From contig JAUIIO010000007.1 of assembly GCA_030431715.1 (NCBI GenBank), positions 33,756 to 97,755 of the forward strand: a stretch of DNA of 64,000 nucleotides, in the 5' to 3' direction. A program made the position numbers. How positions within the stretch are numbered: position 1 is the stretch's first letter; every line of letters starts with the position of its first letter. This DNA is from a bacterium (GTDB lineage: Bacteria; Bdellovibrionota_C; UBA2361; RFPC01). Shown here one piece after another: positions 27,001 to 36,000 of the stretch.

Positions 27001-30000
27001 CGAAGTCGTGTCTTGGAATCAGTTTCGATAATGAGGGATTCTAACTTACGTATAATCATGAAAATACATTTACTCTATCGGCAGAATGTGCAGAAAAGTG
27101 TAATTGTTGCTCGTAGAGCTTATTTCCCAAGAGCTTGAAGAATGCTAGTCGGATCGTATCCTCTGACAATGGTTGACCCGATCTTTGTGATTGGCACTCC
27201 ACCTCCTCCCCACTGGGTATGAAGCATCCTACCTTTCCTATCAGTTTTGATGTCGTACCTCGTATATGAGATATCGTTTTTTTCAAAGAGTCTTTCAACG
27301 GCCGTACAATATGGACACCCTTGCATTACAAGCACTACTGGTTTTTGAACGCGTGTGACCTTGCGCGGGTTATAGTTCGGATCGGGATGAGACGAAATGA
27401 GCGGTAATTGTGCCGGGGATTTTATTCTGCTTCGGTACCGCTGCGGAACCTGTTCAAGGCTGGTGACGTAGTGCTTCTGGCCGTATGAGTCAGTGTAGGT
27501 ATATACCTCGGCTGATACCGTGTTTGTAATACCAGATAGAAGCAGAAGGCAGATGAGAAAAAGTCCCTGTTGCATAAGAGTTAGATGTCGGAACCGTGGA
27601 AAAATAACTAAAGAATGGCAGAAAAAGTATCGAGAGGTAACCATATGGTTTTACAGCCTAAATTATTTTAGTTGATCGAAAAACCTGTTTTTTCATCTTA
27701 TTTGTACACAGGCTGAAGCAAGTAAGAGGGGATCTCAGATAGTGAGATAGGTGGTAGTGTTTTTTTAGTAAGGTTTTACATGCTCAAAGCCAGATTTCAT
27801 AAGAACTCTGATAGAGGCGCTGCCCTTGTAGAGACAGCTCTCGTTATTCCTGTGCTCGTATTGCTGCTGATTGGTGTTTACTACATCAATGCCAGAATGC
27901 ATGCTCACGGGCTCATTACAAATATTGCCCAAGAAGGATCCCGATTTCTCGCAAGGCGTGCCAGTCTTGGCGCGAATCCTCGTCGATCACAGATTTTCAT
28001 GCTGACAGATGATCCTAATACAACGGCGGATGAGACAGCTCTTGTGCCGCTTAATGTGCTTGGTAATCACGCTGCTGGTCATCAATATATGCGCAGGTTA
28101 CTAGTAGCAATGAATACTCGTGATTCAACTTTTCGAATTACACAGATACAAATTGAGACAGAGTTAATTACAGACATAAGCTCGACCTCTAACCCGAGTG
28201 GGAGTGGTTCTACAGCTGGTGAAGAGACAGATAGAATTCAGGCTATTATTCGTGCAACGATGGAGCCAGATGGTCTTTTCCCGGAAACAATGCTTGCGCC
28301 GATAGGACTCTCACCACTTACGGTCGCAGTTACTTCAAATCATCCTTATCTTTTTAGAGCTCAAAACGTAGGGGCAAATAATGGTAGCTAAATGGTTTAA
28401 GAAAGAAGCAGGTGCAACACTTGTTGAAGCAACACTGGTTGCTGGTTTACTCATTTCATTTGCTTTTGGAATACTCGAATTTGGAAGGTATTACTACTAT
28501 AAGGCAACTCTTCTTCGTGCGGCCAATAACGGCCTTGAGCTTTCTATACGTCACGCTGACATCCTAATCGATTCTACTGAAATTGATATGGATAAGACGA
28601 CTTCTGATAACAGTGCACCAGCCGAGCGCTTGAAGGCTGTCATTGATGAGATTGAGAGACGTGTGCTCACGCAAATAGACCTCGAAAGAGATTTGGTAGG
28701 CGCTGCGACTACAAGAGTAGCTGTGAATCAGAATATTACTACAAATTACAGCAATGCCAGTGCAACAGGAGAGCCACCGCTCTACGATCTCCCACCAAGT
28801 CGGGTACTGGTAATACGTCCTGGCGATCGTGGCAGGTATCTTGATCCGGCAACTAATACTGTCATTGAAGTGGTTCATCCTACGTATCCCGAGAGACAGA
28901 ACGGGGATGATTTTTTAAATATACTTCAAGAGCATCCTATTCTTATTGAGATCAATGCTCGTATGGCTTCTGTTATTCCACTTTTTCCTAATATTCCTAT
29001 CCGAGTTCAGGCAGTCGGTATCCCAGAAATCATTACACGTGGTATTCAAGGTGTTCCAGCGGAGCAAGAGCTTATAGATCCTTTTTGTGGAGACAACGTC
29101 TATCATAGCACTTTAGAGACTTGTGACATCGTTGATGGCGTATCTATGGGGGTAGATCCCGGTCACTTTTGTACAACGAGTTGCGAGCAGGAGCCGCTTT
29201 GTGGAAATGGTATTGTTGATGACGGAGAGGACTGTGATGGATGGCTCGTGCGAGAGGGATTGGATGATCTTGAAGAGGGCCTCAGAGAATGCGGTGGTGA
29301 TTGCAAAATTCGAGAGATTGAGCCGTGTGGTAATGGAAGGTGGGAGAAGGATGAACCGTTTTATGAAGAGTGTGATGCTTCTGCGAGTGAATCACTAACG
29401 AGAAATGTTGATGAGTACCTCTGTGTACAGTGTAAATGGTATGACATTACAGAGTGTCTATTTGGGAGTAATAGGATATCTGAGCCTTGCCTTGATCAGA
29501 ATATCCCAGCTGGATTTGAATGTATAAATTGTGTGCTCTGTGAGTGTGATAAAGATCCTGAAACAGGAGCAGAAGATTGTTCAAACTGTAAGGCTGGTAA
29601 GTGTGGTAACGGCATTAAAGAAGCGGGAGAGCAGTGTGATCGCTTTGATGGTACCAGTGACTCTTCTGAGTTCTGTAACGATTGCCGACTGGTAAAAGCA
29701 CTCTGTGGAAATAAAATTCGAGAAGAGCTTCCCGGCAGGTTCGATGGAGACCCACCATATATAGAAAAATGCGATATCGGAGCTCCAAATAATCCTGATA
29801 TTCCAGCCTCACACGTTTGCAGCGAGAATTGCACCATAGCATCCTTATGTCATAACAATAAGGTTGATAATGTAACCGCGCAATTCCCGGGCGATACAGA
29901 CTATTCTGAGGAGTGCGATGGGAATGCTGTTATTCCAGAAAAAGCTGACTTGCTTGCTCAAGACGATCACGAGTGCCGTGATTGTGCCGTACTCCCTCGT

Positions 30001-33000: not shown

Positions 33001-36000
33001 AAATTGATGCGCCACCGATTGTAAGGCTCGCGAATAAGATTATCGCTGATGCCTATGACAAGCGAGCAAGTGATATACATATTGAGCCTGGCCAAGATAA
33101 GATTGAGATTCGCTTCCGCATCGATGGGGTAATGCATAATTTCCTCGAAATACCGAAACGACTTCAGCCATATCTCCTTTCTCGTATTAAGCTTATTGCT
33201 GGCATGGATATCGCCGAAAAGCGAAAACCTCAAGATGGCCGGCTAAGAGTGCGGGTAAATCAAGTCCCGATCGATATGCGAGCCTCAAGTGTGCCAACAG
33301 CATTTGGAGAAAAGATGGTGCTGCGGATACTTCGATCAGACGCAGCGAAGGTCACTTTTAGTGAACTCGGGGTTTCTCCTCCAATAGAGAAAAAGCTTAA
33401 TAGTGCTTTAGACAAAAGAGGAAAACTTTTTCTCGTTACTGGTCCAACCGGTTCTGGTAAGACCACGATGCTCTATACGTTCTTAAACTATCTTCGAGAT
33501 GGAAAAACAAATATCCAGACGGTAGAAGATCCAATTGAATATCGCGTGCCCGGAATTAGCCAGATTCAGGTTAATAATGCCACGGGAGTTACATTTGCCA
33601 GCGCCCTGCGTTCTGTACTGCGTCAGGATCCAGATATTATTCTAATTGGTGAAATACGGGATGAAGAGACGGCATGTATCGCTTTACAAGCTGCTCAGAC
33701 CGGACATCTAGTCATATCGACTCTCCATACAAACGACGCGCCAAGTGCTGTGACGCGGCTTATGAACCTTGGTGTGGATCCGTTTCTTCTTGGCTCGAGC
33801 TTGGAAGGGGTTCTCGCACAAAGACTCATTCGCAAAACGTGTGTTGAATGTCAGCGACCTCTGACTGACATGCAGCTTGCTAAATACGGAGCATATATAG
33901 AGCATTATTCAATTGACCCGGCAACTCTCTATGCGGGTACGGGGTGTGAGGAATGTCACTACTCTGGCTACATGGGGCGGACAGGGCTCTATAGTTACCT
34001 GCAGGTTGATGGCAGGATAGAGGAGTGCATATACCGATCTGCTCCGACCTCGGAAATTGTTCATACGGCTTTACAAAGAGATTATACCGATCTTCACTTC
34101 GCAGCAATTGAGGCGGTTAAGAGTGGCATTACCACGTTTGATGAGGTGAAGGCATATCTGGTGCTACCTGAGATTACTGAAGTTGCTCATGTGGCTTCTC
34201 AGCTAAAAGAGGTTCAGGCTGTGGAGGAGGTGCATGAGCAGGAGGAAGAGCAGGTGCAGGAGGAAGAGCAGGAGCCTGCGCGAAATGATGGTATTGAGAA
34301 AACTAAGGTTTTACTTGTTGAGGATGACGAGGATACGCGGAGTGTTCTTTCGCTTCTCTTGCAGCGAGAGATGTACGAGGTTATTGAAGCTGAGAACGGA
34401 GCAGAGGGGCTACAGAAGGTCTATGAGCATAACCCCGGAGTGGTCATCTGTGATATGATGATGCCTGTAATGGATGGTAAAGAGTTTTTAAAGAAGATGC
34501 ATTCTCGCAAAGAAACAAAAAGTATCCCTGTTGTTTTCCTTACAGCAATTGATTCGGAAGAAAATGAGCTCGAACTCCTTGAGCTTGGTGCGCAGGATTT
34601 TGTCAGCAAGACTACCTCATCGAGCATTATGTTGACTCGTATCCGTAATATTTTAGAGCGACAGTAGCTTGACCACTATTATTTGGACATCGTCTTAAGA
34701 CAGAGCTATAGTCTCTGTGGAAGTGATTATGTTCGATAAGAGGTCTGAAGTTCCTGTACCTGATGAAGCTGGCGATAGTCCTGTTAGAGATAGTCACGCC
34801 CTGAATATTCCTACACAACACTCCTATTTATCACCTCTTAGCTCATCACCACTTGGAAGCGTTACTCTGGCTACAGCGCTCCTGCTCTTTGGAAATGGGG
34901 ACGGTGCATCTGCGCAGAATGTTGATAGGAATATGGACAACGCTCCCGGCCCAACGCCTGAGGAGGTCTTCCTAGCTGATGTTAAGACTGTTTCAGAGTA
35001 CTTAACCGATCTCGATGCCTCACGTTACAATGTTAGGGAACACGCACAGGAAGAGCTCACATTTCACACTCCGTGGAGCACGGAGGAACTTAAAGCACTT
35101 TTACGTTCTTCCGTTAGCGATTCTCTTGAGGTGCGAGCAAGAGTGTCAGAGATCCTGACTGAGATAGAAGAAGGGGAACTTCCTAGTACCTTTATTGATT
35201 TTCTAGAGAGTCGTACAGCGAAGCCAAGAGCGAGAGAGCTGGAGCTTTCTCTGGTTGAACCAGTTGTTTCTAAGCTGGCCCTTCTTTATGGCCGGGCGAC
35301 CTTTCAAACAAGAGAAGAGAAGCTTTTTGTACATTTCGCTTCGCCGGGGAAACAGGCAGATTCTTTTTACAGAATGTATAGTGCCGGATTCTTCGAGGAT
35401 CCGAAAAAAGAGCGCTCCAGTGAAGAGCGAGCGCTCCGTGCTATGAGATCTATCTCTCAGCTCCGTAGTGATGCCGATTTCTTTTTAAAGAACCTGAGTC
35501 GTCTGGAAGAAGCCGGGATACGTATTGAGATTCATGACAATGAATTAAGAAAGCCCACCTATTATATACAGGACTTCTTAATCTTGACTGCCAGCGGCAT
35601 CGCAAATAGTCGTGATGAAGAGTATCAACAAACTTGTAATGATCTACTTCAGGTTTTATCCATTACCGCGGATCGTCTTTCGAGTAGTTCCGATACGGAG
35701 ACTGATCCTGAAGCTATCACAAAGACTGTGAACTCAAGGGCAAGGGCACTAAATGATGTCCTTGGAAAGTTTCGAGAGTGTTTCTCTGACCGCTCAGATG
35801 AAGAGGTGGTAAACTTTAAAAAAGCGTTTATTCATTTTGCAGAGCTCTGTGACCTCGATAGGGAGGAGGGCCTTCTCGCCCTGTTTTCGAAGCTCTCTGA
35901 TACGAACGAAGAATCCTTTGAGTTGGGGACTCAACGAATGTGGGTCGTGTATCACTCTGCAAATCTTACGCTCTTACCTGAAACAAGAAATGCAAAAGCG

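Follow-up and report, generated by a model that had tools for sequence, protein, structure and literature searches.

The 64,000 nucleotides analysed here (the whole stretch is called the window throughout; contig JAUIIO010000007.1, positions 33,756 to 97,755, assembly GCA_030431715.1, Bdellovibrionota_C) hold four consecutive, co-directional genes related to type IV filaments: two for TadE-like proteins and one for a TadG-like protein (together, the trio), followed by a gene for a PilB/GspE-class ATPase with a receiver domain (REC) fused to its C-terminus. A sequence-only reading had taken the trio and the ATPase as one re-wired or minimal module. Domain content and fold were shown, and both the trio and the ATPase-REC fusion were conserved in relatives, but their adjacency was not: it was missing from five genomic contexts of ATPase homologues and from the two trio contexts in which the downstream DNA was readable, and the gene order TadE-TadE-TadG-ATPase(REC) was not seen in the relatives checked. 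The trio and the ATPase are thus probably not one new hybrid machine. With somewhat better than even confidence, they were interpreted as two independently conserved units lying side by side, each serving machinery encoded elsewhere.

All four open reading frames (ORFs) described by the sequence-only reading were present (27780-34667; Table 1), and the overlap that it gave for genes 1 and 2 (11 nt) was exact. The 17-nt overlap that it gave for genes 2 and 3 holds if gene 3 begins at the ATG at 30167, a start that retains the conserved leader ending in ERG, but widens to 44-47 nt for the starts at 30140 and 30137; with the NCBI start (30218, 706-aa product) there is no overlap and the conserved ERG leader is removed. 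Every motif that it had listed was found in the translations, for the ATPase (GPTGSGKTT, DIILIGEIRD, TGHLVISTLHTND and CVEC...CEEC) as well as for the linker and receiver (EEEQVQEEEQE, EDDED, CDMMMP, FLTA and SK), and Pfam upheld the domain assignments: TadE for genes 1 and 2, Tad and Tad_C for gene 3, and MshEN, T2SSE and Response_reg for gene 4. The spacer between genes 3 and 4 carries a Shine-Dalgarno sequence (GGGAGGA) 5 nt ahead of the GTG start of the ATPase gene; neither a terminator-like fold (folding, z 0.58) nor a strong match in a promoter/terminator scan was found in it, and Rfam and tRNA scans of the window gave no matches.

The TadE-TadE-TadG trio

The products of genes 1 and 2 matched TadE (PF07811) at 26.1 and 36.2 bits respectively (cutoff 22.9), and both fell outside the NCBIfam subfamily TadE_Rv3655c (17 bits, cutoff 40). 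A class-III leader with a prepilin-peptidase site G/xxxxE (the slash marks the cleavage point), followed by a hydrophobic helix, is present in both: MLKARFHKNSDRG/AALVE (DRG/AALVE, with Gly at -1 and Glu at +5) in gene 1, and MVAKWFKKEAG/ATLVE in gene 2. Cleavage is predicted at these sites, and the conservation of the leaders suggests that a prepilin peptidase processes both proteins and that they are assembled into a filament. The gene 1 product has no cysteines. The gene 2 product has 38, every one within residues 236-593 of its C-terminal half, where about six CGNG...E(E/Q/K)CD repeats were found; no Pfam or NCBIfam model matched this repeat region, which may resemble the Myxococcus cysteine-rich repeat.

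The gene 3 product matched Tad (PF13400, 30.4 bits, cutoff 22.3) and Tad_C (PF09977, 27.9 bits, cutoff 22.1). Its leader, ...CERG/MALAFF, lacks Glu5; the fibre-capping subunits of type IV filaments, such as GspK, also have no Glu5, so a distal position fits. The AlphaFold model (22-sequence alignment; predicted local distance difference test, pLDDT, 77.4; predicted template modelling score 0.79) comprises a long alpha-1 helix (residues 27-77), a pilin-like beta domain and an alpha/beta domain of the von Willebrand factor A (vWA) kind, and the protein ends in a Cys-containing C-terminal domain. As modelled, the distal module has a Rossmann-like vWA fold with the metal ion-dependent adhesion site (MIDAS) pattern DxSxS...T...D, whose residues (D218-x-S220-x-S222, T450 and D481) do not vary in the five closest sequences. 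A Foldseek search with the model returned the same families with weaker statistics. The vWA block proposed from the sequence alone was therefore upheld in its fold and MIDAS residues but not by the Pfam profile: VWA_2 scored 17 bits against a cutoff of 27, over its last 32 positions only. Pilus proteins with vWA modules are known from elsewhere, namely Streptococcus sanguinis PilB (a type IV pilin, PDB 7b7p) and, at the tips of sortase pili, the adhesins SpaC, RrgA and GBS104. They differ from the gene 3 product both in pilus class and in the N-terminal module, which is TadG-type here, and sequence identity was only 13-14%.

When 1.84 billion representatives were scanned in full with HMMER, relatives of the TadG-like protein numbered 527 at E<=1e-3, of which 44 reached E<=1e-30; lengths were 630-770 aa for nearly all of them, and identity was 37-40% for the closest. 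A word-index homologue search returned the protein itself and no relative, and a scan of metagenome contigs with 5 TadG-family sequences gave zero matches. The three-gene order and size pattern recurred in three distant relatives (P0127, L087 and L088; Table 1), and in the three complete cassettes the two smaller proteins carried G/xxxxE leaders, while the large one kept the Gly and had no Glu5; the G/xxxxE leader is common to gene 1 and the first cassette gene of L087 and L088. In L086, the closest relative, the partial ORF upstream ends in a repeat of the gene 2 type. No ATPase gene followed the TadG-like gene in either of the two relatives with readable downstream DNA (L086 and L087), which, together with the recurring gene order, argues that the trio is a self-contained cassette.

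This kind of cassette has close published counterparts. The Kil pilus of Myxococcus is a Tad-type pilus powered by the TadA-like KilF, and Myxococcus has four KilL/KilM/KilN trios homologous to TadE/TadF/TadG, three of them in separate tip-gene clusters outside kil (Herrou et al. 2025, PMC12075869). These trios were predicted to form disulfide-rich heterotrimeric tips, with a KilN/TadG backbone and an exposed variable distal domain, and structural analogues were predicted in Bdellovibrio and Bradymonas (PMC12075869). In B. bacteriovorus, the tad genes lie dispersed at five or more loci, one of them a lone tadG whose depletion impaired prey invasion, as did that of core Tad parts; TadV is lacking, and the peptidase PilD of the type IVa pilus (T4aP) processes Flp1 (bioRxiv 10.64898/2026.07.08.737194). 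Given such dispersal in predatory bacteria, a stand-alone tadE-tadF-tadG cassette is expected there rather than anomalous. Homologues of the window's proteins came, where named, from metagenome-assembled genomes (MAGs) of Bdellovibrionales, Oligoflexia or Bdellovibrionota.

In the trio, as in KilL/KilM/KilN and TadE-TadF-TadG, adjacent genes in the tadE-tadF-tadG order encode first a small pilin-like protein, then a second one that is extended at its C-terminus, and last a large protein of the TadG/KilN type whose distal domain is variable; the trio also shares with the Kil tips the G/xxxxE leaders and the many cysteines and, with Myxococcus Tip1-3, a location apart from the core machinery. 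The likeness lies in gene order, leaders and architecture; no sequence similarity to the Myxococcus tips is claimed. Unlike the Kil tips, the trio has a vWA/MIDAS module in the distal position (the distal domain of KilN4 has no PDB homologue) and CGNG...CD repeats in its middle protein. The resemblance to B. bacteriovorus, which is probably of the same phylum, lies in Tad components encoded off the main locus and in no TadV nearby, but tadE, tadF and tadG travel together here, unlike the lone tadG. The trio thus matches the satellite “Tip” clusters of the TadEFG/KilLMN kind, and the vWA tip is its distinctive feature.

By analogy with these systems, and as leaders and fold suggest, both TadE-like proteins would be cleaved by a PilD or TadV encoded elsewhere and would join the TadG-like protein through the alpha-1 helices; the resulting heterotrimer would cap and prime a pilus of the Tad/Kil type (type IVc). 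The cap would prime Flp polymerisation on a TadA-driven machine (TadA, TadB/C, secretin and Flp being encoded elsewhere), leaving the vWA/MIDAS site and the disulfide-rich repeats exposed, so that a surface or prey might be bound in a metal-dependent manner.

Alternatively, the trio may form a membrane-anchored vWA surface adhesin or sensor, with the TadE/TadG helices as mere anchors and no pilus. TadG of the classical system has long been described as membrane-anchored and not as a pilin, vWA is a generic adhesion module, and the cassette stood alone, far from Tad machinery, in every context seen (P0127, L087 and L088). This explanation is unlikely, although it survives better than the others considered below: the G/xxxxE leaders are kept in both TadE-like proteins, published genetics and models put TadEFG/KilLMN at the tips of Tad pili, and depletion of a lone tadG hampers prey invasion.

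The ATPase and its tethered receiver

The body of the ATPase starts with an N-domain of the MshEN type (aa 1-145), followed by a stretch that was modelled poorly (about 146-179) and by the N2 and catalytic C-domains (aa 180-565); the catalytic domain holds Walker A, the Asp box, Walker B, the His box and the tetracysteine motif. Pfam scores were 423 bits for T2SSE and 54 bits for MshEN. The NCBIfam models for PilB (TIGR02538, 536.1 bits, alignment 28-563) and GspE (TIGR02533, 511.8 bits, full-length) both scored below their equivalog cutoffs (675.65 and 630.25 respectively), and the PDB relatives were, in order, PilB of Geobacter (399 bits; 5zfr/5tsg), PilB of Myxococcus (381 bits; 3jc8) and GspE (362 bits; 4pht). 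TadA/CpaF identity was rejected, with no such entry among 27 PDB hits (E<=1e-20) or the top NCBIfam hits. By these rankings the protein is an enzyme of the PilB/GspE class, as the sequence-only reading had stated, and slightly nearer PilB. It is collinear over its full length with PilB (5tsg/5zfr, 3jc8) and Vibrio GspE (4pht/1p9r): MshEN/N1, N2, catalytic domain and tetracysteine zinc motif. Unlike these, it has an additional acidic linker of about 40 residues and a C-terminal receiver, and no pilC/pilD or gsp neighbours.

Walker A, E396/R398/D399, H414 and H421 were invariant across 53 homologues, which argues for a working ATPase. The AlphaFold model reached a pLDDT of 87.4 overall and more than 90 in the folded N, N2, catalytic and REC domains. 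The tandem 24-residue cyclic di-GMP motifs of MshEN (RLG..., LxxxLxxQ), read by eye against the Bd1509 alignment (supplement of PMC5013675), were matched only in part (…VVRSLVDLGELENMPSDEAIYSQ…VRTLADLGLIDEQKALKALSAK), with RLG missing and the second Q replaced by K.

Mis-assembly of the ATPase-REC junction was considered and ruled out, the fusion being family-wide: the 733-aa product was recovered on a separately assembled Logan contig, and of the 120 best homologue clusters, which show 40-58% identity and stem for the most part from Bdellovibrionota-like MAGs, 111 share MshEN, T2SSE and Response_reg. The linker varies in length and sequence among the homologues. The phospho-acceptor set of the receiver is complete (D620/D621, D663, T693 and K715); in the 53-sequence alignment D620 and T693 were invariant, and D663 (the phospho-acceptor) and K715 were at least 90% conserved. 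CheY-like regulators in the PDB were matched at 88-90 bits. Judging from these residues, the receiver is a tethered and apparently functional phospho-switch, and their conservation speaks for the control of the motor through a phosphorylatable receiver that had been proposed from the sequence alone.

Receivers that act on PilB-type motors as separate proteins are known. EmvR binds PilB of Xanthomonas and lowers its ATPase activity in a manner that depends on the acceptor Asp (PMC11973254), and PATAN-REC regulators bind PilB1 in Synechocystis (10.1101/2021.06.11.447907). By analogy with EmvR, with the Synechocystis PATAN-REC proteins PixE/LsiR and with Pseudomonas PilG/PilH, the receiver described here may act on its motor by protein-protein contact; unlike them it is covalently tethered, so that stoichiometry is fixed at one receiver per subunit. 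The pilus ATPase of B. bacteriovorus is also fused to a regulator, but there a TadA-type enzyme is joined to TadZ (TadZA), whereas here a PilB/GspE-type enzyme is joined to a receiver. No literature characterising an MshEN-T2SSE-REC fusion experimentally was found. A fused receiver is not mentioned in a 2024 review of PilB cofactors (PMC11656802), and Wang et al. (2016) described co-occurrence of MshEN with REC in some architectures, their Bdellovibrio example, Bd2402, being REC plus MshEN_N with no ATPase.

The fused receiver probably gates a motor of the T4aP/type II secretion system (T2SS) class in cis. A PilB-type hexamer would dock on a PilC/GspF-type platform which, like its N-methyl pilins, would be encoded elsewhere; a histidine kinase would phosphorylate D663, and the tethered receiver would then bind or release the ATPase body, with a change in activity or recruitment.

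Genomic contexts of the two units

In five homologue contexts (P0032, P0021, P0059, P0003 and P0014) the ATPase gene stood alone among varying neighbours, and in none of the five was a TadE- or Tad-family gene found beside it. A T2SSF platform with N-methyl pilins was absent next to the ATPase gene both in the window and in these contexts. Each locus had downstream genes of other sizes and families, with queG and a polyprenyl synthase gene following the ATPase homologue in P0032 and P0003. A hidden Markov model of the TadG family found no member in 84 other loci around PilB homologues. The suggestion that the two large proteins encoded downstream of the ATPase gene might be cargo or accessories was not sustained: nothing ties them to the ATPase, and the corresponding genes differ among the five relatives.

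In an Omnitrophota MAG (L006; Table 1) the fusion heads a classical operon: directly after it come a T2SSF platform and two N_methyl pilins, along with two unknown genes and a kinase of the PAS-HisKA-HATPase type. Where context is informative, therefore, the partners of the ATPase-REC fusion are of T4aP/T2SS type, with the kinase supplied. This operon looks complete, and its PAS histidine kinase is the likely cognate kinase of the fused receiver. Among the matches listed in a scan of genome contigs with the ATPase, L006 and L013 (both Omnitrophota) alone aligned into the receiver, most of the list being taken up by generic PilB proteins of other phyla; L013 was rejected as a fusion because it has separate small ORFs, which leaves L006 as the true one. 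A metagenome scan with an alignment of the C-terminal domain plus REC returned generic receiver domains only.

The partner genes that the sequence-only reading did not find in the 64 kb were indeed absent. Among all 51 window ORFs of at least 150 aa, Pfam found no T2SSF/TadB/TadC, secretin, RcpC/CpaB, A24 peptidase or TadA-type ATPase, and a six-frame motif search of the window found no Flp or type IV pilin leader beyond the TadE-like genes. Genes called in the 6.5 kb past the right end of the window contained no pilus-related Pfam family. No canonical Tad (type IVc) locus was thus present in the window and these 6.5 kb.

Several points weigh against two separate units. Genes 1-6 are co-directional with short gaps and no terminator in the spacer, so co-transcription, and with it a functional link, is possible. 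Tad and T4aP/T2SS machineries are assumed to be encoded elsewhere in the genome, no cognate kinase was identified for the ATPase receiver, and the downstream context of the trio comes from two relatives only. In P0021 (GCA_041447055.1) the ATPase homologue lies 5-10 kb downstream of RcpC-TadA-TadB-TadC, so that Tad-type genes occur within 10 kb of the ATPase in two of six contexts (P0021 and the window), above our chance expectation. Between the tad genes and the ATPase gene of P0021 lie a gene for an 809-aa unknown protein and an FHIPEP (FlhA-like) gene, the latter odd at this place.

These points bear on the explanation in which PilB-REC was recruited as the phosphorylation-switched motor of a fibre or secretion device primed by the trio, so that minor pilins of type IVc would be combined with a T4a/T2SS motor. 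The ATPase gene is next to the trio, co-directional with it and 127 nt away with no terminator-like structure between, a second member of the ATPase family lies near tad genes (P0021), and the prepilin peptidase shared by T4aP and Tad in B. bacteriovorus is a cross-class precedent. Such a hybrid is nevertheless improbable: the adjacency is missing in 5/5 contexts of ATPase homologues and in 2/2 informative trio contexts, TadG-family genes occur in 0/84 other PilB loci, platform, major pilin, peptidase and secretin are all lacking within the roughly 70 kb searched, and the operon partners of the fusion in L006 are T2SSF and N-methyl pilins, with no Tad parts. It retains a small probability because of the tad neighbourhood of P0021 and the spacer without a terminator.

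The degenerate paralogue, neighbouring genes and biological meaning

The sequence-only reading had overlooked a second, degenerate T2SSE-REC gene on the opposite strand. Its product (545 aa) can be aligned with the ATPase over everything from the N2 domain onwards (BLASTP, 355 aa at 28% identity). Of the ATPase motifs it keeps the tetracysteine one but no longer has Walker A, the Asp box, Walker B or the His box; its receiver looks intact and closely resembles the one in the ATPase (CDLMMPVMNG, LMLTA). The family is small, with nine related clusters (P0282-P0290, 387-579 aa, 33-42% identity) and motif losses in all eight aligned (8/8), and one member bears the name “response regulator [Bdellovibrionales bacterium]”. 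The product is a conserved pseudo-ATPase-REC, possibly a regulatory partner. A soluble HisKA plus HATPase_c kinase (369 aa), in which no sensor domain was detected, is encoded 2.6 kb from the paralogue and is a candidate for either receiver.

The paralogue bears on an explanation in which ATPase-REC, perhaps with this dead protein as a partner, is chiefly a signalling device, which could be a phosphate sink or a regulator that titrates or poisons other PilB-type hexamers. In five Bdellovibrionota-like contexts the gene is an orphan that has no platform beside it, a catalytically dead family with the same receiver is conserved, and the ATPase scores under both the PilB and the GspE equivalog cutoffs. 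Its catalytic motifs are invariant in the 53 homologues and the fusion holds the PilB/GspE position in the complete L006 operon, which makes a pure signalling role about as improbable as the hybrid motor. Least probable of all, and hardly to be expected, is a PilB-REC motor captured by the Tad-type tip cassette in a phosphorylation-gated two-class fibre, with the dead paralogue perhaps a regulatory subunit in mixed hexamers; if true, this would be a fibre mixing two type IV filament classes.

Other genes of the window are listed with the main features in Table 1. The flagellin gene has an inserted FG-GAP repeat domain and is split by a frameshift, with Flagellin_N in one ORF and FG-GAP and Flagellin_C in another frame; the split was also present on the Logan contig, so that the gene is either a pseudogene or carries a shared sequencing error in the repeat. 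The 307-aa protein, encoded divergently from the trio and two genes upstream of it, has a C-terminal helix-turn-helix like HigA/XRE (TIGR02607, 36.5 bits, below cutoff) and an N-terminus with the look of a degenerate receiver and a weak match to OKR_DC_1_N; it may be a local regulator. The 174-aa protein, directly upstream of the Cys-rich trio and divergent from it, has a DUF4124-like N-terminus and a glutaredoxin-like domain; relevance to periplasmic disulfide handling is speculation. Secreted hydrolases are abundant, including the reprolysin-like metalloprotease, a trypsin-like protease, a phospholipase D-family phospholipase/cardiolipin synthase-like protein and an endonuclease/exonuclease/phosphatase protein; this richness would fit a predatory or degradative lifestyle.

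Table 1. Features of the window and of related loci (coordinates are window positions unless another sequence is named; aa, amino acids)
Feature	Coordinates	Strand	Product or content	Basis
Gene 1, TadE-like	27780-28391	+	Small TadE-like minor (pseudo)pilin, 203 aa	ORF call, Pfam TadE, leader
Gene 2, TadE/TadF-like	28381-30183	+	Large TadE/TadF-like minor pilin, 600 aa	ORF call, Pfam TadE, leader, Cys map
Gene 3, TadG-like	30137/30140/30167-32338	+	Putative TadG-like tip protein, 706-733 aa by start choice (30137 TTG, 30140 ATG, 30167 ATG, 30218 ATG)	ORF call, Pfam Tad, Tad_C
Spacer, gene 3 to gene 4	32339-32465	+	127 nt	Sequence
Gene 4, ATPase-REC	32466-34667	+	PilB/GspE-class ATPase with receiver	ORF call, Pfam MshEN, T2SSE, Response_reg
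Gene 4, ATPase body	32466-34160	+	PilB/GspE-class ATPase body	Pfam, NCBIfam, PDB, AlphaFold
Gene 4, linker	34173-34289	+	Acidic, disordered, aa 570-608 (...EEVHEQEEEQVQEEEQEP...)	pLDDT <50
Gene 4, receiver	34299-34667	+	REC, aa 612-733, plus stop codon	Pfam Response_reg, 95.7 bits
627-aa protein (neighbour only)	34717-36600	+	No Pfam/NCBIfam family match	
1037-aa protein (neighbour only)	36926-40039	+	Secreted reprolysin-like zinc metalloprotease	HEFGHLLSAQH
Degenerate paralogue	45549-47186	-	Degenerate PilB-like core plus REC, 545 aa	Pfam T2SSE C-terminal part, Response_reg
Histidine kinase	49806-50915	-	Soluble kinase, 369 aa	HisKA, HATPase_c
Split flagellin gene	23661-25522	+	Frameshift near 24340	Flagellin_N, FG-GAP, Flagellin_C
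307-aa protein	26136-27059	-	May be a local regulator	
174-aa protein	27120-27644	-	DUF4124-like, glutaredoxin-like	
Further secreted hydrolases	15497-20456	-		
P0127 cassette			TadE 189 aa, TadE 579 aa, TadG-like 723 aa; then contig apparently ends	
L087 (P0128) cassette			141 aa, TadE 373 aa, TadG-like 737 aa; then, on the opposite strand, genes for DMT and a single-domain REC, followed by lexA-recA	
L088 (P0130) cassette			TadE 185 aa, 359 aa, TadG-like 712 aa; then contig end	
L086 (P0126)			Partial upstream ORF with Cys-rich CxNG...ECD repeats, TadG-like; then opposite-strand BON-domain gene	
L006 PilB-REC operon	2351-10634 of JBAYMZ010000002.1		Omnitrophota MAG	

Nothing categorically new was found, but two under-described families, the vWA-tip trio and the ATPase-REC fusion, are now delimited, and with them one tractable regulatory question; as the adjacency of trio and ATPase is not conserved, a misleading annotation as a hybrid module is avoided. 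Disulfide-rich and tipped with a vWA/MIDAS domain, the trio is a further variant among the interchangeable Tad tips lately recognised in predatory-type bacteria, and its TadG-like family, with about 500 representatives, escapes word-index searches. The ATPase-REC fusion would couple two-component signalling to the motor of a type IV filament in the simplest possible way, at one receiver per subunit, and its family is a possible clean model for the CheY-like tuning of PilB-type hexamers.

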